Assembly (NCBI GenBank): GCA_963848635.1
Contig: CAWKEA010000005.1
Coordinates: 257,526 to 321,525, forward strand
Direction: 5' to 3'
Length of the DNA: 64,000 nucleotides
Source: an uncultured bacterium
Lineage (GTDB): Bacteria; Patescibacteriota; Minisyncoccia; Phycocordibacterales; PALSA-1337
Both the position numbers and the translations under genes were made by a program. A model generated the notes under the pieces. The model ran no database searches, had not been told where the DNA came from, and saw nothing but the letters and a program-made list of their open reading frames with translations. Of the stretch, positions 3,301-58,152 are shown in pieces (within the stretch, counting starts at the first letter, position 1; each line of letters opens with the position of its first letter).

Positions 3301-3504
3301 CGTTTTATTGGTTTTGAATAAGCGGTAATTGATTCACGTTGTTACCGCTCTTGATTTGTGCCTTGAGCTAAATGTGATTTTATATAGTCGAGTAATTGCT
3401 GGTTCATTTTGGTGTATTATTATTAATTTTCGTCGTTAATGACTTGACGATATAGTACAACGTATTGTTCTCTTAATCAATGCCCCTATTTTGCAAAAGT
3501 GGAC

Positions 3505-3540
3505 AAGAAAAAACCGCCGGACCCTCGTCCGAGCGGCTTT
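3505..3540 (-). terminator. rho-independent terminator-like hairpin (CCGCtCGGAC-GAGG-GTCCGGCGG + U-run on minus strand)
   Basis: Plus strand reads aaaaaaccgccggaccctcgtccgagcggcttttcc, a GC stem flanked by an A-run and a T-run, about 230 nt downstream of the 16S 3' region. Confidence 0.5.
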
Positions 3541-3911
3541 TCCTAGTGCTTGTATGCCTTTCTTTCTTTATACATTTATATTTTAACCGACGTCCTCTCT
3601 TTTGTTCCGTTCATCCATGAGCTTTTCTATAGAGAAAGCCCATGTATGCCATTCACCTTCTCATGGCTGAGGCTATAGTTCGAGTCTACAGCTAGACATT
3701 CATACTTCGAAGTCAAAGACTTCTCAGCATGATCGACACGTTAAGTCATCGTTCACCGAAGCGAACGAAAACGTTTTTCACCTTGAAAATTTCCACGAGC
3801 AGCTTCCGCTACCCGTGCCTTGTTACGACTTACTCCCTGTCATTGAGCTTACCTTAGGCCGCCATACGGCGGACTTCGGGTATTCCCAACTCCCTTGAGT
3901 TGACGGGCGGT

Positions 3912-4788
3912 ATTGTGTTTCGATAAATTTTCGAATATGCTCGTTCCCACGTAGCGAGCGGATTTCCCGCACTACGCGAGTCCAAAGTTTGCAAATTCAT
4001 AGTCTCTCGAACTGTCAACATCTTTTGTAATACCTTTTTCGTCAGATGCTCTTTGCTTTCACCAAGCGATCAATCTGGCAGAAAATCTCGCAAATTCTTT
4101 TGCTTTGAAGCAATTGAAAAGGATTTTTCTTGAAGAAAGGATGATTATTTTACCAAGATATCCTATTGAGAACTTACCGAGTAGCAATAACATTGGCAAT
4201 GATTGGCGCGTTCTTCTTTTTGAAAGTAACACTTCGCCGCATTTCAATGATAATTCTGTCACATCGTTCCAAAGATCTCCTTGTCCCTTTCCTGCATCTT
4301 CATAGTGGAGTCATTTGGACACTCGACTCCTCATGCGTTATAAAGAAGACTTCCGATATTGACATAGAAGCAACCTTCACCATCGATAAGTCCGACAACA
4401 TAATCTGTTTGACACCTTTGGATTTGTGTCCTTCCCATGCGCTTATTATATCAAATTAAGTTGACGCATAGTACTACGACTCAGCTGACTTCTACATAAA
4501 TTTAATTATACTTTATCATTTTTGATAACAACGCATCAGATCTCCCGGGTCATTCATTTTTCTGTTCCAACCATCCTAATCAAGGTTTTCAACGGAAATT
4601 TCCCCTGACTCACCGCCCTTAGTTGGAGTCGTCATCGCCTTCTTTCTATCGGGCTGCCCTTTGCATCCCGGATCCTCCGAACATCCCCTCGCGGAAGATG
4701 TACTATCCTTTCGCTACTACCGCACTCATAAATCACGGAATGGATTTTAACAGCTAGATGACACGACTGCCAAGCGCATTGCATTCTG
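3912..4788 (-). mobile_element. intron-like insertion in 16S rRNA (between the 1392 block GACGGGCGGT and GTACAAG...GAACGTATTCACCG), probably a group I intron with a degenerate LAGLIDADG homing endonuclease ORF
   Basis: The conserved 16S sequence stops after gacgggcggt(attgtg) at ~3912 and resumes at ~4788 with tgagtacaagacttgagaacgtattcaccg. The ~875 nt between have no 16S homology. A minus-strand mini-ORF in them encodes MGRTQIQRCQTDYVVGLIDGEGCFYVNIGSLLYNA*, which carries a LAGLIDADG motif. Confidence 0.7.
4330..4438 (-). pseudogene. degenerate LAGLIDADG homing endonuclease remnant (first LAGLIDADG motif, premature stop)
   Basis: Minus-strand translation gives ...DYVVGLIDGEGCFYVNIG...; VGLIDGEGCF matches the LAGLIDADG/LAGFIDGEG consensus. 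The ORF is only 35 aa before its stop. Confidence 0.55.
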
Positions 4789-5874
4789 AGTACAAGACTT
4801 GAGAACGTATTCACCGCAGCGTGCTGATCTGCGATTACTAGCGATTCCGGCTTCATGAGGTCGAGTTGCAGACCTCAATCCGAACTGGCGCATCCTTTAG
4901 AGGGTTGGCTCCGCCTTTTATCGGCTTGGCGTCCTTTTGTAGATGCGATTGTAACACGTGTGTAGCCCAGGGTATCAGAGGGCCATGCTGACTTGGCGTC
5001 ATCCTCGCCTTCCTCCCACGATTCTGCTCGATCAAGTCCAATCCTAAGTCATAAAGTCTTAAGTTCGCATTCTTGATTTACTTTATGAACTTCCGATTGA
5101 ATGCAATCAAAATCGTGGGCAGTCTCGCCTGACATATATAACAGGCAACGAGGGTTGCGTTCGTTACCCCACTTAAGGGAACAATTCAAACCACGAACTG
5201 ACGACAGCCATGCAGCACCTGTCTAACTGCCTTGCGGCGACCAAAGTTTCCTCTGGTCTTCAGCTAGATTTCTAACCCTGGTAAGGTTTTTCGTTTGTCG
5301 TCGAATTGAACCACATGTTCCACCGCTTGTGCAAGTCCCCGTCTATTTCTTTGAGTTTTAACCTTGCGGTCGTACTACCCAGGCGGATCTCTTAACGCGT
5401 TAGCTACGGCTCGAGGAGGGTCGATACTCCTCAAACCAAGAGATCATCGTTTAGGGCGTGGACTACTGGGGTATCTAATCCCATTCGCTACCCACGCTTT
5501 CGTGTTTCAGCGTCAAGAATGCTCCAGTCTCCTGCCTTCGCTTTTGGTGTTCCCCATGATATCAACGCATTTCACCGCTACACCATGAGTTCCAGAGACC
5601 CCTCGCATCTTCTAGCTATGCCGTTTCCCGCGCAGGTCCCCGGTTGAGCCGAAGAATTTAACGCGAGACTAACACAGCCGCCTACACACCCTTTACGCCC
5701 AATAATTCCGGATAACGCTTGAGGCACTCGTATTACCGCTGCTGCTGGCACGAGTTTAGCAACCTCTTATTCATGAGCTCTTCAATAAACTTAGTCGCTC
5801 ATAAAAGGTTTTTACGTACCGAAGTACTTCATCAACCACGCGGCGTCGCTCCGTCAGGCTTTCGCCCATTGCGG

Positions 5875-5905
<31 letters not shown>

Positions 5906-6457
5906 ATGGACCGTGTCTCAGTTCCATCGGTGGGGGTCAGCCTCTCAGCTCCCCTAGACGTCATAGCCTTGGTAGGCCGTTACCCTACCAACTAGCTGAT
6001 ATCGAAAAGGCCGTTCCAAGGGCGAAAAAACTTTACCCTTCAGCCTTGCGGCTTCAGGGACTATCGGGAATTATCTAACCTTTCGGCTAGTTATGCCCGA
6101 CCCTTGGGGACGTACCTGATTATTACTACCTCGTCTGCCGGTGACCCTTGCGGATCCCCTAGACTTGCATGCCTTATCCACGCCGCCAGCGTTCATCCTG
6201 AGCTAGAATCAAACTCTATCAATAAATGAACGGAACAAAAGAGAAAACGCAAATTCGGCTTGTCTGCCGTGAGGCAGACCTGTGCCGACTTTCATAATCG
6301 CCAATGATCACTGTTTATTGATATCGTCCCATCCAGCTCGTAAATTATCGTTTATTATTTGGACTTGCTTTTATCTCAATCTTTTTTCAAGATTGTGTGT
6401 GAATTTCAATTTTCTAAATTTTCAAAGGGCCCAGCCCCCGTTTGGGACATGGGATGT

Positions 6458-7584: not shown

Positions 7585-7628
7585 AGCACAAGCATATCAA
7601 ACGAACGAGATGAATGTCAATTACTCAC

Positions 7629-7832
7629 TTATATCCCCTGATTCAAGAGATTCCTCGTAGACGGCCCGATCACGCCGAGAGGGCTCAATCCGTGCTTTGT
7701 CTGATATGCCATGACTGCGGCTTTTGTGGCGGGGCCAAAGTAACCGGTTGCAGAACCTTTGAGGAAACCGTCTTTTATGAGCCGCTTTTGCAAGGCGACG
7801 ACGTCAGGATTCGATTGGCCGATCTTGTTCAT
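7629..7832 (-). pseudogene. stand-alone fragment duplicating the C-terminal peptidoglycan-binding domain of the 591-aa surface protein
   Basis: MNKIGQSNPDVVALQKRLIKDGFLKGSATGYFGPATKAAVMAYQTKHGLSPLGVIGPSTRNLLNQGI is near-identical to the last 67 aa of ORF 9114..10889 (MNKIGQSDPDVVALQQRLIKDGYL...NLLNQGI). The PF01471-like pattern is present (DV..LQ..L...GY......G.FG..T..AV..FQ). Confidence 0.55.
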
Positions 7833-9026: not shown

Positions 9027-9113
9027 GAATTTGTGTATTTACAATACATATATTAGTATTAATATGTGTATTTATACTACACGAAATTGATAAAATAAGC
9101 AACAGTTACACAC

Positions 9114-10889
9114 TTATATCCCCTGATTCAACAGATTCCTCGTGGCAGGACCACAACGCCGAGCGGGTGAAAGACCGTTCGCTGTTTGATACTCTTCAAC
9201 AGCGGCCTTTGTAGCAGGCCCGAAATAGCCAGTCGCAGAGCTCGTGAGGTATCCGTCCTTTATCAAACGCTGTTGGAGAGCAACTACATCTGGATCAGAC
9301 TGACCAATCTTATTCATGCCTTCATAAAGATAATTATTAAAGGTATATGAAGTAGATGAAGTATTAACTATGCCTTGAGACGGCACAGGCGTCGCTGTGG
9401 GCATGCAGACAAGGCCGGCGGGACAATTGGAGGCGACTGTGGATGAAGAAGCCCCCAACGAGGCCGATGAAAAATTGCCTGTCCAAAAGTACTGCTTTAT
9501 AGAAGAGCCAGCAGAGTTCGAGAACGAGATAATGACAGGCAATGGCATGCTTTCGGAGCCTGTCATCGTGTATACCGCCGTGTAAGGACCACTGCCGGAC
9601 CCATTGACCGATACTGTCGAATTGTTGACCGACACTGAAGGATTGATAATGCTCTGGTTCGCATTGAATCCGATCGTCAGAGAATTACTACCGACAAGGA
9701 AGCTGTTGCTCTGATTTCCCGAAGAAATGGAAAAAGAAGAAAGCGCGAGAGGAATCGAAAGCGTCGAGGAGACGTTTGAAGAAACGCTCACATACAGAAC
9801 ATTGCATTGATTGTTTGTACTGCAGACATTTATGTCCGAGCTACCGACACCGATAGCATTCAACGTCAAGATGTTTCCATTTAGGTTCGGTTTCACGACG
9901 CTCGGATTCGAATTGTTCGAGACATAATATTGCCCTGTATTGCTTCCGGAAAGCGAAACCACCTGATTCTGCCCTGGTGCCAGATTGACGTTGCTCGGAT
10001 TAAACGTAATCAATGAAGAAACAGATGTATTGGATACCGACCCTCCTGCTGGATTCGAATAAGAATTTATCGTGCCGCATTCTCCATCCGACTGGCATAC
10101 TGTTATAGTAGAGCCGCCAGCAGAAAGTCCGGTAACGATCACGTTGTCTCCGCTGACTGTTACCGATACTGAAGATGGATTCGTATTTTGCGAGATAGAA
10201 AATGGGCCAAGGCCAGATATTGTTATGGTTTGACTCTGACCAACCGTCAAGTTTGCGACACTTGAACTTAAAGAAAAAGATGAAACCGGCGACGACAAGA
10301 CACTTATGTTTATGGGCTGACAGTCATTGTTCGCATCACAGACAGTTATTGTGACTGTACCTAAGTTATCATTAGCCGTTATTACAACCGTATTCCCAAA
10401 TATGGTCCCGATAGCTACGGCTGGATTCGTATCGCCTGAAATATGTAATGCTCCAACAGCGTTGTTTGCGGTCACACTTCCGCTCTGCCCCGCACCCATG
10501 TTCAATACAATTTGGCTTAAAGACAGACTGCCTGATGAGCCCGAATTCACTGGCCAATACGAAGAAGAAGATTGCGCCCCGTCAACAACCGCATATACTG
10601 GAGCGCTTCCAGGAATACCGTACGTTCCGGCATTGATCGTACTAGATAGATAGCCGCTTGAATTCGTCAGTCCCAGGCTGACGTACCCTGTCGAAGACGT
10701 AGCAGAAGTATAATAAAGCGTTACTGCGGCTTCTGGGTCAGCGCCATACACAGTGACTTGCACGGAATTGCCAGCAATAGCGGACAAAGTGAGAGAAGGA
10801 GTCGATGCGGCAGATACCTTTAAAAAACCAACAAACAAAAACAATACGATCATCAAAGAAGACAGGATTATATGTTTACTTTTTCTCAT
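9114..10889 (-). CDS. secreted S/T/N-rich surface protein with Ig-like repeats and C-terminal peptidoglycan-binding domain
   Basis: N-terminal signal/TM MRKSKHIILSSLMIVLFLFVGFLKVSAAST, long low-complexity S/T/N/G-rich beta-repeat region, and a C-terminal PG_binding_1-like domain (...SDPDVVALQQRLIKDGYLTSSATGYFGPATKAAVEEYQ...). Confidence 0.75.
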   Translation of the reverse strand: MRKSKHIILSSLMIVLFLFVGFLKVSAASTPSLTLSAIAGNSVQVTVYGADPEAAVTLYYTSATSSTGYVSLGLTNSSGYLSSTINAGTYGIPGSAPVYAVVDGAQSSSSYWPVNSGSSGSLSLSQIVLNMGAGQSGSVTANNAVGALHISGDTNPAVAIGTIFGNTVVITANDNLGTVTITVCDANNDCQPINISVLSSPVSSFSLSSSVANLTVGQSQTITISGLGPFSISQNTNPSSVSVTVSGDNVIVTGLSAGGSTITVCQSDGECGTINSYSNPAGGSVSNTSVSSLITFNPSNVNLAPGQNQVVSLSGSNTGQYYVSNNSNPSVVKPNLNGNILTLNAIGVGSSDINVCSTNNQCNVLYVSVSSNVSSTLSIPLALSSFSISSGNQSNSFLVGSNSLTIGFNANQSIINPSVSVNNSTVSVNGSGSGPYTAVYTMTGSESMPLPVIISFSNSAGSSIKQYFWTGNFSSASLGASSSTVASNCPAGLVCMPTATPVPSQGIVNTSSTSYTFNNYLYEGMNKIGQSDPDVVALQQRLIKDGYLTSSATGYFGPATKAAVEEYQTANGLSPARRCGPATRNLLNQGI

Positions 10890-15518: not shown

Positions 15519-17798
15519 ATGGCAAAAAAGAAAAACGGCAAGGACAAAAAAGAGAACGGATCATCGTTCGTCAACGAGCTCAAGACAGAAACACTGCAGG
15601 CAGTACTATCGATCATATTTCTAGTGGCAGGCATACTGACTGCTCTGGCCAAATTCGACAAAGCAGGCTGGGTCGGAAACGTCTTTTACCACTATGCTCA
15701 TACCTTGTTCGGTGTGGGCTATTTTCTCCTTCCGCTCATATGCATCATCCTCGCTACAGCGTTCTTGCGGGGCATACGGCAAAGATTCACCTTCTGGAAA
15801 CTGATCGGCGGATTGCTATTCTTGCTCTCCGGCCTCGGCCTGGTTGACCTTGTCTTCAAGGACGAGGGCGGCATCATCGGCCACTATGTGTCGAGCCCTC
15901 TCATATCGCTCGTCGACGTATACGCCTCCGCGGCGATCCTCATCGCGTTAGTCGCCATCTCTCTTCTCATCACATTCGAGACAGGCGTCACATTTGGAAC
16001 CTTAGCATTTTGGAAGCAAAAGGACGGCGATGAAAAGAAGAAGATGAAAAAAGAGCCAGCCTCGGATGACTCGGACGTAGACGAGATGGTGGAGGAAGCC
16101 GAAAAAAAGCTCGATGGCGACAAGCAAAAAGACGACGACAAAGAGGAAAGAGCAACGCCGATTCCGCCACAGCCAAAAAAAGCGGAAAAAAAGAAGGCGG
16201 ACGATGAAGAGGATTTTGCCATGGCCGCAAACACGAGGAGCATGAAGCCGTTCACTCCCCCGCCGCTCTCGCTCCTTGAAAAAGACAGCGGCCGGCCGGA
16301 GACCGGCGACATCAAGGCGAATGCGAATATCATAAAGAGGACGTTGCAGAATTTCGGCATAAGCGTGGAGATGGACGAGATATCGATCGGACCTTCGGTG
16401 ACGCGATATGCTTTGAAACCTGCTGAAGGCGTCAAGCTGTCGCGCATAACCGCGCTCAGCAACGACTTGTCTCTGTCCTTGGCGGCACATCCGATACGCA
16501 TCGAGGCGCCTATACCAGGAAAGAGCCTCGTCGGCATAGAGATACCGAATACTTCAAAGACGACTGTCGGCCTTGCCACGATTCTCGGTTCCGAAGAATT
16601 CCAGCGGTCTGAAAAGCCCCTGCTCATCTCTCTCGGAAAATCGATCACGGGAGCTTCTCATTTCACCAACCTGGCCAAAGCGCCGCATATGCTCGTAGCC
16701 GGCACCACCGGCTCGGGCAAATCAGTCATGATACACGCTGTCATCACTTCCCTGCTCTACCGCAATTCGCCCGAGGATCTGAAGTTCATCATGATAGACC
16801 CAAAACGCGTCGAATTGACGCTCTATAACAAAATTCCCCATCTTTTGACGCCGGTCATAACAGATGCGAAAAAAGCTATTTTGGCCTTGAAATGGGCTGG
16901 CAAAGAGATGAGCCGAAGATACGATATACTCGAAAAATCCTCGGCCCGAGACATCGAGTCATATCATAAAAACGTCCTCGACCCGGCGATCGAAAAAGCC
17001 ATAGCCAAAGTCAAAAGCCAAAAGGCAAAAGGCACAAGCGAAGATGGGAACGGGGATGAAGGGAAATTCCCCGAAACGATGCCGTATATCGTCATCGTGA
17101 TCGATGAATTGGCTGATATCATGCAGGCGTATCCGAGAGAGCTGGAAAGCGCCATAGTCCGTCTGGCCCAGATGAGCCGCGCCGTGGGCATCCATCTGGT
17201 CCTATCGACCCAAAGGCCCTCGGTCAACGTCATAACAGGCCTCATAAAAGCGAATATCCCGACGCGTGTGGCGTTACAGGTCGCTTCGCAGATAGATTCG
17301 CGCACTATCCTCGACCAGCCTGGAGCGGAAAAACTGCTCGGTGCCGGCGATATGCTCTATCTCGGCGCGGATATGTCAAAACCAGTGCGCCTACAATCGG
17401 CGTATATATCAGAAAGCGAAGTGAAGAAAGTGACCAAGTATCTCGCTGATACATACAAAGACGAGATCATGGGCGAAATAAACCTCTCAGGGCCGCAGAG
17501 CGAGCCGGGTCAGGACGCCGTTTTCTCGGCCAATCTCGATGATGAGACGCTCGAAGACGACGATATGTATGAGGACGCACGCCTCGCCGTAGTTTCCGCC
17601 GGCAAAGCTTCGACATCGTACCTCCAGCGCAAGCTCGGCGTCGGCTATTCGCGCGCGGCAAAATTGATGGACATGCTCGAGGAACGCGGCGTCATCGGAG
17701 CGGCGAACGGATCAAAACCGAGAGAGGTGATGGGTGCGGCTGTGGCGAGCGAAGATTCCTTGATCGACACAACAGAACCGAACGATGAGGCAATTTAA
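15519..17798 (+). CDS. ftsK: DNA translocase FtsK/SpoIIIE
   Basis: N-terminal TM helices, Walker A GTTGSGKSVMIHAVITSL, the characteristic IVIDELADIM and LVLSTQRPSVNVITGLIKANIPTRVALQVAS segments, and a C-terminal gamma domain (YLQRKLGVGYSRAAKLMDMLEERGVIG). Confidence 0.92.
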   Translation: MAKKKNGKDKKENGSSFVNELKTETLQAVLSIIFLVAGILTALAKFDKAGWVGNVFYHYAHTLFGVGYFLLPLICIILATAFLRGIRQRFTFWKLIGGLLFLLSGLGLVDLVFKDEGGIIGHYVSSPLISLVDVYASAAILIALVAISLLITFETGVTFGTLAFWKQKDGDEKKKMKKEPASDDSDVDEMVEEAEKKLDGDKQKDDDKEERATPIPPQPKKAEKKKADDEEDFAMAANTRSMKPFTPPPLSLLEKDSGRPETGDIKANANIIKRTLQNFGISVEMDEISIGPSVTRYALKPAEGVKLSRITALSNDLSLSLAAHPIRIEAPIPGKSLVGIEIPNTSKTTVGLATILGSEEFQRSEKPLLISLGKSITGASHFTNLAKAPHMLVAGTTGSGKSVMIHAVITSLLYRNSPEDLKFIMIDPKRVELTLYNKIPHLLTPVITDAKKAILALKWAGKEMSRRYDILEKSSARDIESYHKNVLDPAIEKAIAKVKSQKAKGTSEDGNGDEGKFPETMPYIVIVIDELADIMQAYPRELESAIVRLAQMSRAVGIHLVLSTQRPSVNVITGLIKANIPTRVALQVASQIDSRTILDQPGAEKLLGAGDMLYLGADMSKPVRLQSAYISESEVKKVTKYLADTYKDEIMGEINLSGPQSEPGQDAVFSANLDDETLEDDDMYEDARLAVVSAGKASTSYLQRKLGVGYSRAAKLMDMLEERGVIGAANGSKPREVMGAAVASEDSLIDTTEPNDEAI

Positions 17799-18383: not shown

Positions 18384-18902
18384 ATGTCTACTAAAATCAC
18401 AAAAACAAAGAAAAAAGAGGCCTCGATCGATGACGGATTTTCTACAAAAGCCGATGTCAAAGAGATCGTTAGAAATGCCATCAACGAACTGACAATGATT
18501 ATCGGGGATTCTTTTGGAAAGATGGAGAAATCGATGAATGCTCGATTCGATGAAGCTGATGAGAGATTTGACGAAATGGATTCGAAGTTCAAACTGATTG
18601 ACGAGAGGTTCGATCGGATCGATGAGAAGTTCGTTCTGATTGATGAGAAGTTCGTTCTGATTGATGAGAGATTCGAGCGGATCGATGAGAGATTCGAGCG
18701 GATCGATGAGAAGTTCGTTCTGATTGACGAGAGATTCGACGAGATAGATAGACGGTTCGAAGAAGTCGACTTGAAATTCGACGGTGTAACAAATCGAATC
18801 CAGGGGCTTTGGAATGCTTTTGATTCTCACACCCTCGACTGTGTCAAACGCGACGAGCACGATAGATTAGAAAAGAGAGTGCGGGTATTGGAAACAGCTT
18901 AA
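18384..18902 (+). CDS. coiled-coil protein built from 11 tandem heptads (DE[KR]FxxI), N-terminus resembling RecA N-terminus
   Basis: Protein is ...DERFDEM DSKFKLI DERFDRI DEKFVLI DEKFVLI DERFERI DERFERI DEKFVLI DERFDEI DRRFEEV DLKFDGV... The DNA at 18558-18788 is 11 consecutive 21-bp units, several identical (gatgagaagttcgttctgatt). The N-terminus MSTKITKTKKKEASIDDGF parallels the RecA N-terminus [18 protein letters not shown]. Confidence 0.6.
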   Translation: MSTKITKTKKKEASIDDGFSTKADVKEIVRNAINELTMIIGDSFGKMEKSMNARFDEADERFDEMDSKFKLIDERFDRIDEKFVLIDEKFVLIDERFERIDERFERIDEKFVLIDERFDEIDRRFEEVDLKFDGVTNRIQGLWNAFDSHTLDCVKRDEHDRLEKRVRVLETA

Positions 18903-24300: not shown

Positions 24301-25824
24301 TTATTTCCTCATGAAAAGCGGCGCGTCCGGCATCTTGTTTTCCTTTACCAAAGAGATTATTTTTTCTGCAGTCTGCGGCAAAAATGGCTTCAGCATGGTG
24401 CCGATCATATCCAGACGCGCCAACAATTCCTGTATATCCTTTTTAGCTTCGGCCTTGTCGACTTTTATCTTTTTGAACGGCTCGCGCTCTTGGATGATCT
24501 TGTCGGTGGCCGCGATAAAGTCCCAGATCGCCTTTGAAGACCTTTGTAAGTCGTATGAGTCGAGGCCTGCCATCTGCTCTTTGTATGTCTTGTCCATCTC
24601 CTCCGAAGCGGCAATATCCTTGGCTATCTTTTCATCAAAGACGATGCCGTTCGACGTCGCCATTTTCATGACGCGCGAGACGAGGTTGCCAAGACCGTTA
24701 GCCAAACCTGCATTGTAGGCGTCTTTGAACTTTTCTGGCGTGAATGGGCTGTCTTCGAAAGGATGGAGCTCACGCAACGCAAAATAGCGCAAAGCATCGG
24801 TACCGTATTCTTTGACCAATTCGAATGGATCGACGGTATTGCCGAGGGATTTCGACATTTTGATGCCGCCATCGCCCGTGACGAAGCCGTCGATGACGAT
24901 GGTCTTTGAGGGAGGCAGGCCAGCCGCCATGAGCATTGACTGCCACATCGCGGATTGCTGGCGGAGATTGTCTTTGCCGCAATATTGGACGACGCCGCCG
25001 GAATCGATCCACCATTTTTTGAAGGAATTGTCATTTACCGCATTCCCGTCTTCACTTTTGAACTTTGAGTTTTGAGTTTTGAGTTTGTTATCCGGCCATC
25101 CAATGCACGAGACATAATTGACGAGAGCGTCAAACCACACATACATGACCTGATCGGGATCGCCGGGAACATCTATCCCCCACGACATCTTTGACTTGAG
25201 CCGCGATATGCTGAAATCCTCGAGGCCGCGACCGACAAAGGCTTTTATCTCATTGAAACGAAAATCAGGGATAACCAAAGAAGGATTTGACGTGTATAAG
25301 TCGAGGAGTCTCTGCTGGAACGCGCTGAATTTGAAAAAATAGTTCTCTTCTTTTATCATCTCGATCTCCTGTAGCGGATGGAGCGGGCAACGGCCGTCGA
25401 CGAGCTCTGAATCTGTCTTTTCGAGCTCACAGCCGACGCAATATTTTATCGAGTAGTTTTTCTTGTATATAAAGCCGTTCTTTTGGACGATGCGCCAAAA
25501 TTCCTGGGCGGCAAAGACGTGATATGCATCAGTCGTCCGAACGAAATTCGCGTCTGGAAGGACACCAAGCACAGACAGCAATTCCCGAAATTTCTTTGAC
25601 TTTTCATCGACATACGCCTGTGGCGTCAGATTCTGCGCCGCCGCAGTCTTGTCTATCTTTGCCCCATGCTCGTCGGTGCCGGTATTCAGAAAGACCTCAC
25701 AGCCAGCGAGCTTTTTAGCACGCGCGACGGCGTCGGCCCGGATGAGCTCGACGGCAAAGCCGACATGGGGATCGGCGTTCACGTACGGCAAGGTGGTTGT
25801 TATGTAGAATGGAGGTTTTTTCAT
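24301..25824 (-). CDS. metG: methionyl-tRNA synthetase
   Basis: Class I aaRS. TLPYVNADPHVGFA (HIGH-region variant), CVGCELEKT zinc knuckle, KMSKSLGN, and anticodon-binding helical C-terminus. Confidence 0.9.
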   Translation of the reverse strand: MKKPPFYITTTLPYVNADPHVGFAVELIRADAVARAKKLAGCEVFLNTGTDEHGAKIDKTAAAQNLTPQAYVDEKSKKFRELLSVLGVLPDANFVRTTDAYHVFAAQEFWRIVQKNGFIYKKNYSIKYCVGCELEKTDSELVDGRCPLHPLQEIEMIKEENYFFKFSAFQQRLLDLYTSNPSLVIPDFRFNEIKAFVGRGLEDFSISRLKSKMSWGIDVPGDPDQVMYVWFDALVNYVSCIGWPDNKLKTQNSKFKSEDGNAVNDNSFKKWWIDSGGVVQYCGKDNLRQQSAMWQSMLMAAGLPPSKTIVIDGFVTGDGGIKMSKSLGNTVDPFELVKEYGTDALRYFALRELHPFEDSPFTPEKFKDAYNAGLANGLGNLVSRVMKMATSNGIVFDEKIAKDIAASEEMDKTYKEQMAGLDSYDLQRSSKAIWDFIAATDKIIQEREPFKKIKVDKAEAKKDIQELLARLDMIGTMLKPFLPQTAEKIISLVKENKMPDAPLFMRK

Positions 25825-28583: not shown

Positions 28584-28616
28584 ATAATTTCTAATTGACC
28601 TAATTTCTAATTGACC
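28584..28616. repeat. left 28-bp inverted repeat (tandem TAATTTCTAATTGACC units) flanking the four-helix-bundle gene
   Basis: aatttctaattgacctaatttctaattgacc matches the reverse complement of 28969-28998 at 27 of 28 positions. Confidence 0.75.
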
Positions 28617-28622
28617 TAAAAA

Positions 28623-28967
28623 TTACTTCATTTTCTTGAATATGGCATTGAAGATTAGGTTCAACTCTTTTGCTTCAATCCACAATAATCTAGCCTTATC
28701 TCTCGTGCTTGGTGCCGCAGTGACAATCATTCTTAAAAAATGCTTTACTTCCCTTGATTCTTTTTTACATATACCGATCTTATGCTTGAAATCCGCTCTG
28801 CTCTCAGCATCATCAGCCTCACAATAATTTGCCCCAACAGAGGTGCCGCATTTCACCAACTGCCTTATAAGCGGCCTTGTTACGTCATCTTTATCCAATT
28901 TTCTACAAAAATTTATTATTGATTCACCGAACTTTGCAGTTCTTTCCTCAAGATCAAACTTTTTCAT
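28623..28967 (-). CDS. four-helix-bundle protein (TIGR02436 / '23S rRNA intervening-sequence protein' family)
   Basis: 114 aa. LIRQLVKCGTSVGANYCEADDAESRADFKHKIGICKKESREVKHFLRMI fits the family pattern (L..Q.......N..E......S...F.....I...E..E....L). The gene lies in the loop between the two IRs. Confidence 0.65.
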   Translation of the reverse strand: MKKFDLEERTAKFGESIINFCRKLDKDDVTRPLIRQLVKCGTSVGANYCEADDAESRADFKHKIGICKKESREVKHFLRMIVTAAPSTRDKARLLWIEAKELNLIFNAIFKKMK

Positions 28968-28968
28968 T

Positions 28969-28998
28969 AGTAATTAGAAATTAGGTCAATTAGAAATT
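28969..28998. repeat. right inverted repeat; overlaps the glyQS stop codon (encodes ...KISN*)
   Basis: taattagaaattaggtcaattagaaatt. The GlyRS terminal codons AAA ATT TCT AAT TGA are the reverse complement of 28986-29000. Confidence 0.75.
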
Positions 28999-35197: not shown

Positions 35198-38100
35198 TTA
35201 TAAGACGAGGTCGAACTTGATGCCAGCTGTGGCATCAACTACTGCACCATTTACAACAATCTCAATATTCTTCAACAATACCGCCTTCACGAGCTCTTCC
35301 TTGTTCCTTTCGATGAAAGCCTCCCCCGCCTTGTCCGCGGCAAAGACCTTGAGGATCGGCCGATCCTGTATCGTGAGCTTTTGCTCCTTGCGCCTATCCT
35401 GGATGGCGCGCATGAGGTCGCGCAGTTCCCCTTCTTCTTTCAATTCAGGCGTTATGTTCAGATCAAGCTCAACTTCTGTGCTGATACTTCCATCAACAAC
35501 GACTTCCTTCACATTGACTTCTTCGTTGATCAAATCAAGCAAGTTTTTGTCTTCAATTTTGAACTTTGCATTTTGCACTTTCAATTTTGAGAGCGGCTGT
35601 CTGACGTTTATCTTTGCTTTTGAGCGAGCTTCGAGGCCAAGGGATGCTATGTCGCGGACAAGCTTCATATTCTCAATCAGATCTTTGTCGATTGCACTGA
35701 GAGCGGGCCAACTCTCGAGATGCACGCTTTCACGGCCGCCTTTCAGTCTCATGTAGACGTCTTCGGCAAGGAACGGCATGAACGGCGCTAGTAATTTTGA
35801 TACTTCAAGGAAAACGAGGCGCGTCGTTGCGAGAGCGGCCGACTTATCAGCTTCATCTTCCCCCTTGAACCTGTCTCGCGAGCGACGCAAATACCATGTA
35901 GAAAGGTCATCGATAAAATCTGCAAACGGCCTCGTCGCCTTGTCGAGCTCATATTTCTCCATTCCTTCAGTCACCTCCTTGTTCAATTCATTCAGGCGAG
36001 AGACGATCCATCGGTCAAGGATGTTTTTGCTTGCATCGCTTCGCGACGGAATGGTCTCGCTCACACGAAATTCTTCTGTTGAAGAATTTCTCCGTTCCGC
36101 GCCGTCGCGCTCCACGAGGTTCGCTCGACCCATTCCGGTCGCTTCGCCTGCATACAATTCATAGAACGTCACGACATTCAAAAGCCTGCCGATGTGCTTC
36201 TTGACCACTTCATCGACGCCCTTTTCTGAAAAACAGAATTCCTGGGCACGAACAGCAGGAGAAGACAAGAGATAGTAGCGCAAGGCATCGGCTCCATATT
36301 TCCGGACGACAGGCATGAGATCAGGGAAATTATTCTTTGATTTGGACATCTTTTGCCCGTCTTCAGCCAGAATGATGCCATTGACAACGACATTTTTATA
36401 TGGCGCTCGGCCAAAAAGCGCCGTACCGAGCACGATCATGCTATAGAACCATCCGCGCGTCTGATCGACACCTTCAGCAATGAAATCCGCAGGATATCCC
36501 CTACTTTTCCCCAACTTATCCCCAGTTATCTTTGCGAGGAATCCCCTCGCTGGATCGAATTCTTTTGTATCAAAAGGATAATGCGCCTCGCCGAACGGCA
36601 TCGAGCCTGATTCGAACCAGCAATCGAAGACTTCCTCGACGCGCTTTAGTTTTTCGCCGCCCGGCAGATGCAATTCGATATCATCGATGTATGGCCTGTG
36701 CAAATCGATCTCGAAATCGTCATTGTGCGGCAGTGGCACAAAATCGAGCTTTTCAGGAGCGGCGTTATCGAAATAATGGAGCTTGCGGTTTCTGAGATTG
36801 AGGGTCCCTTTGTCATCGAGCCCGAGCGAAACAGATGCCAGCATAAAAGCCGGCGCATCGTGAGTGACGATAAGGATGTTCTTGCCTACATACCTCCTCT
36901 CCATGTCATAGATAAAACTGCCGACCCGCTTTCGGATATCGGCGTAGTTCTCCCCCTTTGGAAGGCGAATAGAAAAGCGCTTCTCATGCGGGAAAGCTTC
37001 CATGAACTCATCGAATGGCTTGCCGTCATAGATGCCGGAATCCAATTCGTGAAGACGATCGTCGACGATGATATTTTTCTTCGGAAAATCCAGTCCAGCC
37101 GCAAGGATATCTGCAGTCTCTTTTGTGCGGACAAAAGGCGAGACAAAGATGATATCGATCTTCTTGTCGGCAAAGAATGCCGCCGCAGCCTTCACTTGCG
37201 CCTTTCCTTTCTCTGTCAGATGCTTTGGGTCGGTTGCTTTCGCGCTCATGACGCCGAGCGTGTTATTCTCCGCTTCGCCATGACGCATGATGTAGTAGGA
37301 GTTTTTGGCTTGCGAATGCTTCCTGAGGTCGTTGATCGAACCGAAGCAATGGATAGAGCCTGACTTTTCGCCGCGCCAGACCGGGATCGGAGCGCCCCAA
37401 AAACGCGAGCGGGAGATGGCCCAGTCGCGAGCTCCCGCGAGCCAGTTGCCGAAACGTCCTTCGCCGACTTCTGGCGGAGTCCAACTGACTTTGCCGTTCG
37501 CGGCAACGAGCTTGTCCTTGAAATCGCTGACGCGCACGAACCATGACGACGCGGCATAATTGAGGAGCGGCGTGTCGCAACGCCAACAATGCGGATACGA
37601 GTGCGTCATATTCTCCTTTGCAAAGAGAAGGCCTTTTTCTTGGAGCCACTGGATGACTTTTATATCCGTGCGCAAATGCGCGTCCTTGTCTTCCGGCGTA
37701 TCCTTTGGCTTTACTTTCAAACCTGAAAAATCAACGACTTCTTTTTTGAACGTGCCGTCGATATTGACGTGCTGAACGAACGGCAGATTTTCCTTTTGTC
37801 CGAGCGCATAGTCATCAGCGCCGAACGCAGGCGCGATATGGACGATGCCGGTGCCGTCGGTCGTCGTGACAAAATCGGCGGCATATACTTTCCAGCCGTT
37901 TTCGCGATTCTTGAGACTTGTGTCTTTTGAATAATAGTCAAAGAGGGGCACGTAGGATTTGCCGACGAGGTCGGAACCCTTCATCTCTGCGACGATTTCA
38001 TATGCTTCTTTTTTGAAAGTTGCCTCGAGCCTTTCTTTTGCACAAATATAAAAAACTTGATTCTCTCCGCCAACGACAACAGGAACACTTTTTCTACCCC

Positions 38101-39010
38101 CTTCGGTGGAGCGAAAAAGTTTCCTCTCGTCTTGTGTCGCGGCTGACGAAGCGTCCTGTGCCGGTGCATCATTTGAGCTTTCGATTTTTTGTTCAGGCCC
38201 TCCGACTTTCACTTTCACATAATCAATATCCTTGCCTACAGCCAATGCGACATTGCCGGGCAATGTCCACGGCGTCGTCGTCCATGCCAAGAGATACGTA
38301 CCTTCATCGTCCCCGTCTGCATCTTTGAGTTTTGAGTTTTGAGTTTTGAGCTCGAACTTCACATACACTGAAATGTCCTTTATGTCTTTATACCCCTGCG
38401 CGACCTCAAAATTCGATAGCGTCGTCTCGCAGTGCGGACAGATCTGCATCGGCTTGAAGCCCTCATAGACGAGCCCTTTTTCATGCAATTGCTTGAAAGC
38501 CCACCAGACGCTCTCGGTGTAGCTCGAGTTCATGGTCTCGTAATCGTTCTCCATGTCCGCCCAGCGGCCGAGTCGCGGGATGATCTCCTTCCAATCGTTG
38601 ACGTATCGGTGCACCGCTCTTCGAGCGGCAGAATTGAAATTTTTGATGCCAAAATCGATGATGTCTTTCTTGCTCTTGAGCCCGAGTTCCTTTTCAATCA
38701 GATTCTCGACCGGCAAGCCGTGACAATCCCAACCCCAGCGACGGCGCACGCTGTAGCCTTGCATCGTCTTGTAGCGAGGAACTGCGTCTTTTATCGAAGT
38801 CGGCAAAACGTGGCCAAAATGCGGCAATCCCGTAGCGAATGGCGGCCCGTCATAAAAGACGAACTTGCCGCGCGGAGCTTCCCTATCGACGCTTTTCTTA
38901 AAAATATCGTTCTCCTTCCAATATTTTAAAATGCGCTCTTCGCGCTCTTGTGCTGGCGTTTTTGCGACCACCTTGTCGCCAGTTTGGCCTGCATTCTGAT
39001 TTGTTGTCAT
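35198..39010 (-). CDS. ileS: isoleucyl-tRNA synthetase with a ~200-aa histidine-phosphatase (PGAM-like) domain inserted in place of the zinc-knuckle segment
   Basis: FYDGPPFATGLPHFGHVL (HIGH), GWDCHGLPVE, KMSKSKNN, and a C-terminal anticodon-binding domain. Residues ~565-765 read YYIMRHGEAENN...LTEKGKAQV...IIFVSPFVRTKETADIL...DDRLHELDSG...ILIVTHDA, matching histidine phosphatase branch-1 motifs. They lie between WRGEKSGSIHCFGSINDLRKHS and DLHRPYIDD...EVFDCWFESGSMP. Confidence 0.9.
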   Translation of the reverse strand: MTTNQNAGQTGDKVVAKTPAQEREERILKYWKENDIFKKSVDREAPRGKFVFYDGPPFATGLPHFGHVLPTSIKDAVPRYKTMQGYSVRRRWGWDCHGLPVENLIEKELGLKSKKDIIDFGIKNFNSAARRAVHRYVNDWKEIIPRLGRWADMENDYETMNSSYTESVWWAFKQLHEKGLVYEGFKPMQICPHCETTLSNFEVAQGYKDIKDISVYVKFELKTQNSKLKDADGDDEGTYLLAWTTTPWTLPGNVALAVGKDIDYVKVKVGGPEQKIESSNDAPAQDASSAATQDERKLFRSTEGGRKSVPVVVGGENQVFYICAKERLEATFKKEAYEIVAEMKGSDLVGKSYVPLFDYYSKDTSLKNRENGWKVYAADFVTTTDGTGIVHIAPAFGADDYALGQKENLPFVQHVNIDGTFKKEVVDFSGLKVKPKDTPEDKDAHLRTDIKVIQWLQEKGLLFAKENMTHSYPHCWRCDTPLLNYAASSWFVRVSDFKDKLVAANGKVSWTPPEVGEGRFGNWLAGARDWAISRSRFWGAPIPVWRGEKSGSIHCFGSINDLRKHSQAKNSYYIMRHGEAENNTLGVMSAKATDPKHLTEKGKAQVKAAAAFFADKKIDIIFVSPFVRTKETADILAAGLDFPKKNIIVDDRLHELDSGIYDGKPFDEFMEAFPHEKRFSIRLPKGENYADIRKRVGSFIYDMERRYVGKNILIVTHDAPAFMLASVSLGLDDKGTLNLRNRKLHYFDNAAPEKLDFVPLPHNDDFEIDLHRPYIDDIELHLPGGEKLKRVEEVFDCWFESGSMPFGEAHYPFDTKEFDPARGFLAKITGDKLGKSRGYPADFIAEGVDQTRGWFYSMIVLGTALFGRAPYKNVVVNGIILAEDGQKMSKSKNNFPDLMPVVRKYGADALRYYLLSSPAVRAQEFCFSEKGVDEVVKKHIGRLLNVVTFYELYAGEATGMGRANLVERDGAERRNSSTEEFRVSETIPSRSDASKNILDRWIVSRLNELNKEVTEGMEKYELDKATRPFADFIDDLSTWYLRRSRDRFKGEDEADKSAALATTRLVFLEVSKLLAPFMPFLAEDVYMRLKGGRESVHLESWPALSAIDKDLIENMKLVRDIASLGLEARSKAKINVRQPLSKLKVQNAKFKIEDKNLLDLINEEVNVKEVVVDGSISTEVELDLNITPELKEEGELRDLMRAIQDRRKEQKLTIQDRPILKVFAADKAGEAFIERNKEELVKAVLLKNIEIVVNGAVVDATAGIKFDLVL

Positions 39011-51393: not shown

Positions 51394-52377
51394 TCATCTC
51401 GCCGACCACCTCGCGAAGATGCCGCACGGCAGTAGCCTGGCGGTCGCGCTTTGTCCTAGTTTCGCCGGACCTTTTTGGGTCTCTTCTATCGTCAACTCGC
51501 CTGCCTCGATCGTACCGCCGAACTTATCCTGCAAAATTTTCAAATTATTCGCATAAGCGATTGGTGAATATCCTGCCGCGTATCCGTTTATCAAAAAGAA
51601 AAGCGGCTTGGCTGAGAGAAGCTTCACGCAATCATTGAAAAGCGGCACGAAATCTTCTTCTATCTTCCAAACCTGTCCTTTGTCGCCACGGCCAAATGAC
51701 GGCGGATCCATGATGATGGCATCGTATCGGCGCTCACGGCGCAATTCCCTTTTCACGAAATCGCGCGCATCGTCGAGCATCCAGCGGATCGGTTTTTCTG
51801 CGAGACCGGAAAGCTCCGCGTTCTCCTTTGCGCGAGTGATGGCGACTTTCGACCCATCAATGTGGACAACAGACGCGCCCTCAGCTGTACACGCGAGCGA
51901 TGCGCCGCCGGTGTAGCCAAAAAGATTAAGCACCTCTAGCTTTGAAGCTTGACCCCCAATTTTGGGCTTTGAGTTTTGAGTTTTGAGTTTTTCCTTCATC
52001 CATTCCCAATTCGCTTTTTGTTCAGGAAAAAGGCCGACATGCTTGAATGGCGTCGGCTCGACAAAGAATTTGAGACCGGCAAAACTGATAGGCCATTTTT
52101 CAGGCGTGCCTGCCTTCAACTTCCATCTGCCTTTCGAGCTTGCCTTGCCCTTTACATCTTCACCATCGCTTTCACTGGCGACACGGCTAAAAGTCCCGTC
52201 TGCCTTTGCCCATTCATCGGGCGATAGCTTCTTTTGCCACAAAGCCTGCGGATCGGGGCGCGACAAGACATATTTACCGAACCTCTCCAGCTTTTCCCCG
52301 TCGCCGGAATCGAGCAGTTCGTAGTCTTTTTCGGCGGACGTCGCAAGAATTTCGTTTTGCTTCCAAGATTGATTCAT
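51394..52377 (-). CDS. class I SAM-dependent rRNA methyltransferase (RlmI/RlmK-like)
   Basis: VLNLFGYTGGASLA (motif I), IIMDPPSFG (motif IV DPP). N-terminal PUA-like region. Confidence 0.75.
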   Translation of the reverse strand: MNQSWKQNEILATSAEKDYELLDSGDGEKLERFGKYVLSRPDPQALWQKKLSPDEWAKADGTFSRVASESDGEDVKGKASSKGRWKLKAGTPEKWPISFAGLKFFVEPTPFKHVGLFPEQKANWEWMKEKLKTQNSKPKIGGQASKLEVLNLFGYTGGASLACTAEGASVVHIDGSKVAITRAKENAELSGLAEKPIRWMLDDARDFVKRELRRERRYDAIIMDPPSFGRGDKGQVWKIEEDFVPLFNDCVKLLSAKPLFFLINGYAAGYSPIAYANNLKILQDKFGGTIEAGELTIEETQKGPAKLGQSATARLLPCGIFARWSAR

Positions 52378-52494
52378 GGAGCGATGATAGCAAACCTTGG
52401 CTCTATTAACAAATAAATCATCTCGATCACATGCGCACCTTTTTTCTCGACTAGCGAGCTTGCCACGTGGGTGGTTGTATACAATTTATATGCA

Positions 52495-52522
52495 TGTTTA
52501 CAATGTATATACATTGTAAACA
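52495..52522. promoter_or_regulatory. 28-bp perfect palindrome TGTTTACAATGTATA/TACATTGTAAACA (candidate operator), preceded by the palindrome TTGTATACAA (52475-52484)
   Basis: Read directly from sequence. The reverse complement is identical over 28 bp. Confidence 0.45.
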
Positions 52523-52751
52523 CAGACAAAAATAAGGGACACCCCCCCTACAGAGAATGATTAGTCTTGAATGATTTCAATCGCTCGATTGATTATTCTT
52601 TCGCCGATTTTCCCCCAATCAAAGTATTTTTTGTATTCTTTTGGATCGATGAGCTTTATCTCTGTCACGCTCCCAGCGGGATCGGAGACGAACGGCCCGA
52701 AAGGCTCGACGATGCAAGCGTACCGAATATGACTAAACCGCCGTCACAGTT

Positions 52752-56561: not shown

Positions 56562-57336
56562 TCCATATGCAGGATGAATGCACTCTACTAACCCCTCGAA
56601 GCCCGTCACAGCGGCTTCGGGGAGTTTTTTTATTTTCTGATTATAACAAGCACAGGGCCTTGTCCGCAGACCGACAGTTACCCCCAAATATAAGCAGTAC
56701 GCACCGGTTTGTGACGACGCCGTTTGAATAATCGGAAGCGATGGTTTGCAAAACTCCTTTTTCTCTATCGTGCAAGACGACGCGATTCCATTCGGCCGAT
56801 CCAATAGTGTCTGTTCCACTGGCAACTTTTTTTGACTCTGCCATACCTCGATTAAGAGACTCGGTGTTTTCAGTTATCCGCGGAGTCATGTTGGCCTCGA
56901 CTGCGAGAAATAGGCCATCGTTCATATCCATCACGTTTTCGCCGAAGCGAGACCGCACAGGAAAAGCTAGGAAGTGCTGATAGAACTGGATCATCCTCGC
57001 ACCGCTATTGGAGTTCCTGTTGTCGGGGTTGTTCCAGTTGAACCTGACCTTGCGGTTGTCCGGATTCCAATTGCCGTTCGCGACATTGCCGTCGGAGAGA
57101 CCGTGTTAATGCCTCACTTCGTCCATGTCACCGGTAATGGAGAACAACAATATGCTCAACATATTCCTGAGTTATCACGCGGTAAAGCGTGCATAGTATA
57201 AAATGAGGCACGCAATTTCTTTTTTCGCGGCAAATTGCTGTTGCGCTTTTACGCGGAACCAATTTCAGAGCCGTAGAAAAAATATATATGAAAGTGGCAC
57301 AGAGACAAGCTCTGCGCCACGGTGAGGGAACAAGGT

Positions 57337-58152
57337 TCAAGGTTTGAGGGAAACAGACATTGCCACACGGGCACCGCCATTGGAGCCCCTGTCGTCGGGG
57401 CCGTTCCAGTTGAACCTGACCTCGCGGTCGTCCGGACGCCAATGGCCGCCCGCGACGTAGCCGTCGGAGAGACGATCCTCGGGAAACCACGTGTAGGTCT
57501 CGGCATCAAGAAAGTCCTTTGAGACGAAGTGGCGGAGACCAAAGGCCAGTGCATAACCGCGTAATTTCAGGAACAACTTACCAGTTTTACGGAGCTGATT
57601 CGGTGAGAGACCCATCGTGTCGGCCGTAGGTCGCAGAGAATTTTCAATGAGATGAAGCGTCGGCTTGTCGGAGGCTTCCGAACCGCTGTAGTTCATAACA
57701 TCGACTCCTTCCCAGACTTTCAGGCCTTGATCTTGAAGGACATCTTTGATCACACTGCGGTTGGTCATCCTGCCGGGGATAAAGACTGGCAAGATGTTCT
57801 TCCATGGAAGTTCCTCAGGAAGCACGAACAGCTTCCGAAGATCAATCGTGGCACCAAAGACAGCTTTGGCATATTCCTCGGTCTTCCCCAACATGACATC
57901 AAGGTCGGTGTCCGATGCTTTGAAGAGCGTCGGCGGAACCGCGACAGGAGCTTCCTACACCGGGATGATGAAGCCGCGGCGGATGGCCGTCGGAAGTTCA
58001 TCAAGATGATGTTCGTAATATTCGATCAATTCCTCGGTAAGGACATCCGCGAAATTCGCGGCGGCCTTGCAACCGAGATTGCAGGCACGTTTGACTAAGG
58101 GTGTGTTCAACATATGAACGTTTCCTTTCTTTGTTTTATTTGTTGTTTTCAA
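57337..58152 (-). pseudogene. hypothetical protein split by an in-frame TAG (57955-57957); a C-terminal segment is duplicated at 56990-57100
   Basis: ORFs 57955..58152 and 57337..57894 are in the same frame, separated only by TAG (...RRGFIIPV*EAPVAVPPTLFKASDTDLDVMLGKTEEY...). The C-terminal ...DGYVAGGHWRPDDREVRFNWNGPDDRGSNGG has an ~85%-identical DNA copy upstream of ORF 56641..56994. Confidence 0.4.

Follow-up and report, generated by a model that had tools for sequence, protein, structure and literature searches.

Description of the arrays

The window analysed here is a 64,000-nt stretch of contig CAWKEA010000005.1 (positions 257,526 to 321,525, assembly GCA_963848635.1) from an uncultured member of the Patescibacteriota (lineage PALSA-1337) whose best protein matches fall in the Patescibacteria/Paceibacterota, and its subject is a heptanucleotide repeat, (CTCAAAA)n, that lies inside three unrelated minus-strand genes. 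The hosts are the isoleucyl-tRNA synthetase gene ileS (IleRS, 35198-39010, an unusually long open reading frame (ORF) of 1270 aa), the methionyl-tRNA synthetase gene metG (MetRS, 24301-25824) and a Methyltrans_SAM/RlmI-like gene (51394-52377), hereafter rlmI. The 21-mer CTTTGAGTTTTGAGTTTTGAG has exactly three exact matches on the plus strand (25063-25083, 38323-38343 and 51967-51987), about 13 kb apart, so that one unit stands at several unlinked loci of one genome. A first-pass annotation, made from the letters alone, had reported this core in the same three genes with coordinates one base higher, and the identity that it stressed is indeed far beyond chance: 0.01 matches are expected in dinucleotide-preserving shuffles, none of which reached the observed count.

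Head-to-tail arrays of at least three 7-nt units were confirmed at all three sites with Tandem Repeats Finder, which returned period-7 arrays at 25056-25086, 38324-38350 and 51960-51991 with 3.9-4.6 copies and 87-100% matches. At ileS site a (38309..38350, minus strand) four units, CTCAAAA x3 and CTCAAAG (38323-38350), are followed by the tail ATGCAGACGGGGAC. The metG insert (25024..25089, minus strand; about 66 nt or 22 aa, NKLKTQNSKFKSEDGNAVNDNS) holds an array at 25056-25086 composed of AAACTCA x3, AAGTTCA and AAAG. The rlmI array (51960..51991, minus strand) reads CTCAAAA CTCAAAA CTCAAAG CCCAAAA and occupies the linker before the S-adenosylmethionine-binding LNLFGYTGG motif. Over 34 nt the metG and rlmI arrays agree at 31 positions, a closer match than the rlmI array has with its own orthologs, and by comparison of boundaries and flanks the stretch common to the window sites is short (21-34 nt). 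All three copies are inside coding sequences on the coding strand and show none of the intergenic bias of dispersed heptamer repeats.

The rlmI array is unchanged in an independent JGI contig (L256, whose neighbouring proteins are 98-100% identical) and in an ENA protein (P0241, 99% identical), and is thus not an assembly artefact; together, the shuffles and the independent assemblies rule out chance or artefact as the origin of the arrays. The window sites fold worse than shuffled sequence (z of +0.9 to +2.0) and have no palindromic or terminal-inverted-repeat structure, which rules out a hairpin or terminator at these three sites, and an Rfam scan of the window gave only the small-subunit rRNA and one tRNA, with no match at the arrays.

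Frame, strand and peptide follow from the unit itself. As 7 and 3 share no common factor, direct reading of (CTCAAAA)n gives the cyclic peptide L-K-T-Q-N-S-K whichever sense frame is used, and 21 nt of the complement, (TTTTGAG)n, suffice to bring a TGA into each of its three frames. A copy can therefore persist inside a gene only on the coding strand, where it encodes LKTQNSK. The reading phase relative to the array end in ileS differs from that in metG and rlmI. The shared frame, strand and peptide are automatic, are not independent coincidences and provide no evidence for a selected peptide. The peptides quoted in the first-pass annotation are correct, but the coincidence of frame and strand that it noted is forced and lends no support to the selected peptide motif that it proposed as one possibility.

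Orthologs

The metG insert falls in a hotspot between GWP[DE] and FKKWW. Four orthologs that are 76-85% identical (P0003, P0004, P0006 and P0010) read GWPDDQKKFKKFW there and are insert-free, so that the window MetRS has 22 extra loop residues relative to them; in other relatives this site of MetRS is filled by unrelated inserts, 20-80 aa long. In the AlphaFold2 model, MetRS residues 247-263 have a predicted local distance difference test score (pLDDT) below 50 and form a disordered coil loop between helices 232-241 and 266-274. At ileS site a the inferred insert is 39 nt or 13 aa (KTQNSKLKDADGD) and precedes the WTTTPWTLP motif of the editing domain; most Paceibacterota IleRS orthologs read KFELVD-EPGTF without an insert, and many other lineages have different inserts there. 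One IleRS (P0121, 80% identical) carries a homologous insert made of four TGCAAAA heptamers followed by an identical GACGGGGA tail. A disordered or surface location in the host protein is indicated for MetRS by the model, and for IleRS and RlmI by alignments in which both sites are length-variable. In both metG and ileS the array belongs to an insert that is specific to the lineage and placed in a disordered hotspot loop of variable length.

The rlmI array has a different history. In three orthologs with 60-80% identity (L127, L128 and L129) the matching position holds four NTCAAAR units, with diverged bases and no indel, and judged by these alignments the array is old, ancestral and positionally conserved, not a recent insert. 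Presence against absence, relative to orthologs with an intact gene, is therefore seen for metG and ileS site a and not for rlmI. The small in-frame insertion element suggested in the first-pass annotation accordingly stands for metG and ileS, with their empty ortholog sites in hotspot loops, and fails for rlmI, where orthologs carry a diverged array in place, the outcome that the annotation itself had named as the mark of ancestral sequence. Its fourth, diverged copy in ileS (35540-35580) also falls away: the region aligns with native IleRS sequence in all orthologs without an insert, and the heptamer-periodic stretch there (35552..35590, minus strand; TTGAAAG TGCAAAA TGCAAAG TTCAAAA TTGAAGAC) is not an insertion.

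Within the rlmI array, pairwise identity among four sequences only is 0.38/0.71/0.67/1/1/1/0.58 over heptamer positions 1-7. By codon position, identity among the same small set of four is flat in the array (0.80/0.78/0.70) compared with the flanks (0.85/0.96/0.49). These values point to conservation of the 7-nt and not the codon register, and hence to a putative DNA-level constraint or homogenisation rather than peptide selection. The number of units is constant, with equal array length in L256, P0241 and L127-L129, and copy-number variation between strains was not seen among them.

Other inserts occur in the same proteins. IleRS aa 573-737 (window about 36800-37294) form a complete histidine-phosphatase domain (His_Phos_1, E=1e-33) inside the catalytic domain; PF00300 is also present in many Paceibacterota IleRS matches, several of which are called as split or 'partial' genes at the insertion point. 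A second lineage-specific IleRS insert covers aa ~271-318 (window ~38056-38200; GGPEQKIESSNDAPAQDASSAATQDERKLFRSTEGGRKSVP...), and its APAQDASSAATQDE motif recurs as APARDASSAETQDE in the MetRS hotspot of P0009, while in L125 a solo heptamer arm occupies the site of this second insert. The hotspot loops of relatives also hold peptides of the kind encoded by translated REP-like palindromes, in the MetRS P0007 (VIPAKAGI...DPRLRRDDK) and the RlmI P0249 (IPASRSEAEAKAGI...QDPRFRGNDK), and PSCAAAIVSRRVSEEG is a third peptide that recurs there. Recurrent peptides that differ in this way suggest that several repeat families colonise these loops.

Related genomes

A period-7 survey of related genomes revealed that each is dominated by a heptamer dialect of its own, with about one array every 2-3 kb, and that the arrays are often inverted pairs and often gene-internal. 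In one relative, L121 (MetRS 83% identical), an element of ~78 nt occurs five times; it consists of a left arm (AGTNCCN)n, a loop with GTCAAGAAAA and a complementary right arm. One copy is in the metG 5' untranslated region, the coding sequences of metG and ddl each hold one in-frame copy and that of a UvrC-like gene holds two; the copies have sharp boundaries and unrelated flanks, and the genic ones are all read in one frame (..VPSSEYLVPSQENRNSVLGTRNSEL..). Relative L124 has an element of like architecture in the dialect AAAGTCG/GACTTTC/GACTCGG, with copies in metG, ftsK and an intergenic site, those in metG and ftsK being in-frame miniature hairpins; solo left arms are found in ftsK and in the ileS of L125. 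Sharp common boundaries with unrelated flanks are clear for both the L121 and the L124 elements.

In the relatives the elements fold as hairpins (z of -3.4 to -7.3), and those inside genes are often hairpins of about 75 nt, two arms and a short loop, copied in frame into many genes. Related genomes thus hold bona fide dispersed, in-frame heptamer-array elements of the kind that the first-pass annotation had conjectured. The window has an in-frame array of another dialect in ftsK (16994..17039, plus strand; AAAGCCA/AAAGTCA/AAAGGCA, then SEDGNGDEG), which shares its site with the ftsK hairpin element of L124. In a metagenome contig (L308), an in-frame composite arm of CTCAAAA type directly follows CVTGDTLL, which resembles an intein N-terminal block.

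The unit itself is widespread. (CTCAAAA)3 was found in at least 120 GTDB loci and at least 120 metagenome loci, and the taxa among the matches listed include cyanobacteria, Chloroflexia, Bacteroidota, Acidobacteria, deltaproteobacteria, Saccharibacteria and Levybacteria. Also among the matches listed, it lies in frame in the conserved domains of YebC, GltX, RibH, GDP-fucose synthase, TatD, TopA, LigA and an L4 tail. IMG/VR has 33 loci with (CTCAAAA)3 vs 24 and 34 for composition-matched permuted heptamers, and this equal frequency rules out CTCAAAA as a universally special unit.

Cassettes

The window contains one intervening-sequence-like (IVS-like) cassette (28586..28998, minus strand), in which an S23p/four-helix-bundle ORF (28623-28964) lies between 27-nt inverted arms (28586-28612 and 28972-28998). 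The predicted protein matches TIGR02436 (E=1e-17) and PF05635, the 23S-rRNA-intervening-sequence protein family (E=2.8e-11), and is Avd-like; the arms are perfect (27/27 complementary) and built of 7/9-nt repeats. The cassette adjoins a class II aminoacyl-tRNA synthetase (aaRS) gene and a peptidase M16 gene, stands apart from the three arrays and is not in 23S rRNA helix 25 or 45. Gene order is class II aaRS / S23p / M16 / AI-2E / metG in the window and aaRS / M16 / S23p / AI-2E / metG in L124, so the homologous cassette differs in position within a conserved gene order. The L124 homolog is flanked by arms in the L124 dialect that match a mini-hairpin of the same genome (L124:21385) over 27/27 nt on the left and over 18/18 nt at the start of the right arm; given these shared arms, the L124 mini-hairpins look like deletion derivatives of the cassette.

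Searching with two S23p proteins (tblastn) in 340 loci (2.5 Mb), nearly all of which had been chosen for containing a heptamer triplet, gave nine more S23p genes, and 11/11 have inverted heptamer arrays on their two sides. In six of these loci (L246, L231, L259, L242, L090 and L149) the arms are (AAACTCA)n/(TTTTGAG)n; the last of the six also encodes a RecA 64% identical to that of the window, which places CTCAAAA-armed cassettes in Patescibacteria relatives. Among IMG/VR loci picked by protein similarity alone, six of eight distinct loci have inverted-repeat scores of 19-35, against a mean of 8.9, a 99th percentile of 13 and a maximum of 15 in 150 random intervals, and the 7-nt periodicity of the arms in this set is 0.7-1.0.

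Plasmid loci of cultured organisms agree, with inverted heptamer arrays at 6/6 S23p genes. The arms are CAATTCG x4.5 on a Nostoc punctiforme PCC 73102 plasmid, CTGGTCA x13 in Euhalothece natronophila and TTAGTGA x12 in Bernardetia sp.; a Treponema saccharophilum plasmid locus also has S23p with inverted heptamer arrays. The two others are heptamer-armed four-helix-bundle cassettes placed between cas2 and cas1 on Anabaena cylindrica PCC 7122 pANACY.01 (L352) and between DISARM drmD and BREX pglX on Planktothrix agardhii p1 (L355), where they are intergenic hitch-hikers inside defence loci. Overall, 23 of the 25 S23p loci, from several phyla, have arms made of inverted heptamer arrays, and six use CTCAAAA.

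One of these arms links cassettes to genic arrays. The upstream arm of the L259 cassette, (CTCAAAA)n CTCAAAG TTCAAAA ...AAAACT, is met again, inserted in frame, in many contigs of low GC content, and several contigs that bear it share synteny or homologs with the window; L273, for example, has a CTCAAAA array in a different IleRS loop. A full-text literature search returned no paper that ties S23p genes to heptamer arrays in general and no description of such elements in Patescibacteria coding sequences.

Discussion

The three window sites are best read as single-arm arrays, (CTCAAAA)3-4 ending in CTCAAAG, of a selfish heptamer-repeat family whose complete form is the S23p cassette, a reading to which we assign a probability of roughly 0.55. 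Such a family, inserted in frame where housekeeping proteins have disordered loops of variable length, probably exists in the Paceibacterota and probably takes the forms of an IVS-like S23p (Avd-like) cassette between inverted arrays, ~75-nt hairpins and solo arms; cassette, mini-hairpin and solo arm are all present in the relatives.

For the window arrays, a pre-formed arm of at least 21 nt would have been copied in as one block, since growth in 7-nt steps would frameshift an essential gene, a consequence of the unit length that the first-pass annotation had already pointed out. The route could be the family's own propagation process or template switching between arrays. Selection would then keep those insertions that add a multiple of 3 nt, fall in a permissive loop and present the stop-free strand as sense, and only solo arms would survive in genes because no frame of the partner arm, TTTTGAG, is free of TGA. 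After fixation, the number of units would be frozen, as in the four units of every rlmI ortholog, the unit sequence would be homogenised toward the dialect of the genome, and the encoded peptide would serve as a neutral hydrophilic spacer.

Several observations weigh against a cassette-derived family as the source of the arrays. The weakest point is that the only cassette seen in the window has arms of the TAATTTC/TAATTGACC type and the arrays are CTCAAAA. Pfam scans of 43 window ORFs contained no transposase, RAYT, reverse transcriptase or integrase, and target-site duplications were visible neither at the window sites nor at the five L121 copies. The 64-kb window has no CTCAAAA/TTTTGAG hairpin, and the hairpin loop motif of the relatives, AGTCAAGAAAAA, has three one-mismatch matches in it vs 0.5 expected, none of them flanked by arms. 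A-rich heptamer triplets of any sequence are about equally common in IMG/VR, so ordinary simple-repeat formation contributes, and two point changes would suffice to turn an L127-like array into the perfect rlmI array, which is ancient. A selfish family of this kind gives no account of how a solo arm could enter an essential gene with no lethal intermediate on the way.

The arrays might instead be simple-sequence heptamers formed in place, by slippage in A-rich loops coding for Lys, Gln and Asn and by convergence on an easy unit, with neither copying nor a cassette involved. According to Mrazek (2007), as summarised in PMC4679880, no class of long simple repeat is more abundant in prokaryotes than heptamers, and the frequency of permuted triplets in IMG/VR, the ancestral rlmI array with its near-perfect state in relatives and the heptamer periodicity of the native IleRS stretch at 35552-35590 all suit such an origin. 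We nevertheless consider it unlikely: every step of plus or minus 7 nt frameshifts an essential gene, metG and rlmI resemble each other over 31/34 nt beyond the likeness of rlmI to its orthologs, and slippage cannot create the loops and irregular units that the elements of relatives share at many loci. The metG and ileS arrays, moreover, appear as complete blocks against empty orthologous sites, which weighs against growth in place. An origin in the organism's own 16S rRNA gene (positions ~905-930) by templated insertion and reiterative copying of AAAACTC, possibly giving a 16S mimic in the mRNA, appears improbable. The 3' end of the ileS array with its tail, AAAACTCAAAGATGCAGACGGGGAC (38309-38333), is identical at 22/25 positions, where 0 matches are expected, to a 16S segment of the universal 907-930 region (5335..5359, minus strand; AAAACTCAAAGAAATAGACGGGGAC), the match covers two 16S variants specific to the lineage, adding two extra units to the 25-mer gives the 39-nt insert, and all three arrays end in CTCAAAG as 16S does. 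Tests on the flanks only, however, gave p=0.03 for ileS, 0.11 for metG and 0.40 for rlmI, the homologous insert of P0121 is built of TGCAAAA units, arrays elsewhere run on as CTCAAAACT, which is not 16S sequence, and arms of S23p cassettes explain the arrays with no 16S donor. A 16S origin for all three arrays is ruled out, as only ileS is significant; the match is an unexplained feature of the ileS site, not a general origin, and may reflect rDNA-templated insertion or coincidence.

Maintenance at the protein level, with KLKTQNSK-type lysine-rich peptides serving convergently as RNA-binding appendages of tRNA and rRNA enzymes, is hardly probable. It is true that all three hosts bind RNA, that many RlmI orthologs keep the pattern K-x-K-x-Q-N-x-K and that the DNA-binding FtsK also has a K-rich array. 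But it is the 7-nt register of rlmI that is conserved, with third codon positions at 0.70 vs 0.49 in the flanks and with residues that vary while bases stay fixed; the MetRS model predicts a disordered insert, close orthologs function insert-free, and the CTCAAAA array also occurs in RibH, GDP-fucose synthase, TatD, TopA, LigA and YebC of other phyla. Phase variation classically works through tandem repeats with a unit length not divisible by three, and the arrays could in principle be contingency repeats or programmed-frameshift sites that turn their host genes on or off. All three hosts are essential and single-copy, the unit number is equal in independent assemblies and in all rlmI orthologs, and arrays of 3-4 units are short for efficient slippage, which makes such switching extremely improbable.

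A selfish family with S23p cassettes as its complete form may have a wider counterpart. Heptamer arrays in general could be the arms, mini-hairpins and solo arms of widespread selfish S23p/Avd-like cassettes, classical 23S IVSs among them, with S23p recognising or propagating the arrays; we offer this as a tentative proposal that, on balance, has less than an even chance of being right. If true, it would explain why 7-nt repeats are overrepresented in prokaryotes (STRR, TAACTGA, GGGAATC and others), would give a role to the S23p protein, whose function has been obscure for 30 years, and would have its derivatives colonising essential genes of Patescibacteria in frame. Two old questions, the abundance of bacterial heptanucleotide repeats and the role of S23p/IVS proteins, are linked by the S23p loci themselves, 23 of 25 of which have inverted heptamer arms. 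Even genomes as small and gene-dense as those of Patescibacteria appear to accommodate selfish repeats, which lie in frame in disordered loops of proteins such as aminoacyl-tRNA synthetases, FtsK, UvrC and Ddl, with consequences for gene calling, protein-length comparisons and structure modelling in this group.

Other features of the window

Further repeats are present in the window. A 172-aa ORF (18384-18899) just upstream of recA, with no Pfam match, contains eight tandem 21-nt (7-aa) repeats at 18536-18766. Immediately upstream of the rlmI-like gene is an AT-rich tandem and palindromic stretch (52469-52548; TGTATACAATGTATATACA x2, 40-nt inverted arms). A 103-nt direct repeat (85%) is found at 56999-57101 and 57371-57473, and a 50-nt direct repeat (86%) at 7618-7667 and 9103-9152, at neighbouring gene ends that include the gene for a PG_binding_1 protein. 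On the downstream side of the 16S gene (4739-6224, minus strand), some 1.4 kb (3300-4738) have neither a long ORF nor an Rfam match, and no 23S gene lies within the 64-kb window, so the rRNA genes appear to be unlinked.

Known systems

Elhai et al. in 2008 reportedly described small dispersed repeats (SDRs) of 21-27 nt in Nostoc punctiforme that were proposed to be mobile and sometimes lie within genes, and these are said to be described in cyanobacteria only. Dispersed heptanucleotide repeats include the cyanobacterial STRR and the TAACTGA arrays of Beggiatoaceae, Cyanobacteria and Bacteroidetes (PMC4679880), as well as GGGAATC in Xanthomonas and GGGGAYT in Nostoc (PMC4692102). The window arrays resemble them as short, scattered tandem 7-nt arrays with lineage-specific units, sometimes in inverted pairs, whose spread is unexplained, and in both the stop-codon content of the unit sets the permitted orientation in ORFs. 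Dispersed heptamers, however, are in their great majority intergenic and often directly precede start codons, whereas the arrays here are in frame in loops of conserved domains of essential genes, and no S23p link has been described for the former.

Rickettsia palindromic elements (RPEs) are selfish elements inserted in frame in unrelated housekeeping genes, as outlined in a review of the original report (Ogata et al. 2000, reviewed PMC10969869). As far as that outline goes, both RPEs and the window arrays are tolerated in surface regions and encode an innocuous peptide. RPEs are characterised there as palindromes of about 100-150 bp without heptamer periodicity, in contrast to the window arrays, which are non-palindromic single arms of 21-31 nt; on the same outline, the ~75-nt hairpins of the relatives are the closer RPE analogue.

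The cassette resembles the IVSs of 23S rRNA genes. The Coxiella IVS has 28-bp terminal inverted repeats, S23p, excision by RNase III and, beside the S23p ORF, tandem GACAGAT heptamers whose number differs among strains (PMC4990558), and like the IVSs of Coxiella and Leptospira the cassettes here place a four-helix-bundle S23p ORF between stem-forming terminal inverted repeats (PMC4990558). The 23S IVSs are likewise regarded as selfish elements of obscure mobility (PMC4990558). Classical IVSs, however, sit in 23S rRNA helix 25 or 45 and are cut by RNase III, whereas the cassettes here lie between protein-coding genes and, unlike IVSs, have arms that are wholly heptamer arrays and miniature derivatives inside coding sequences.

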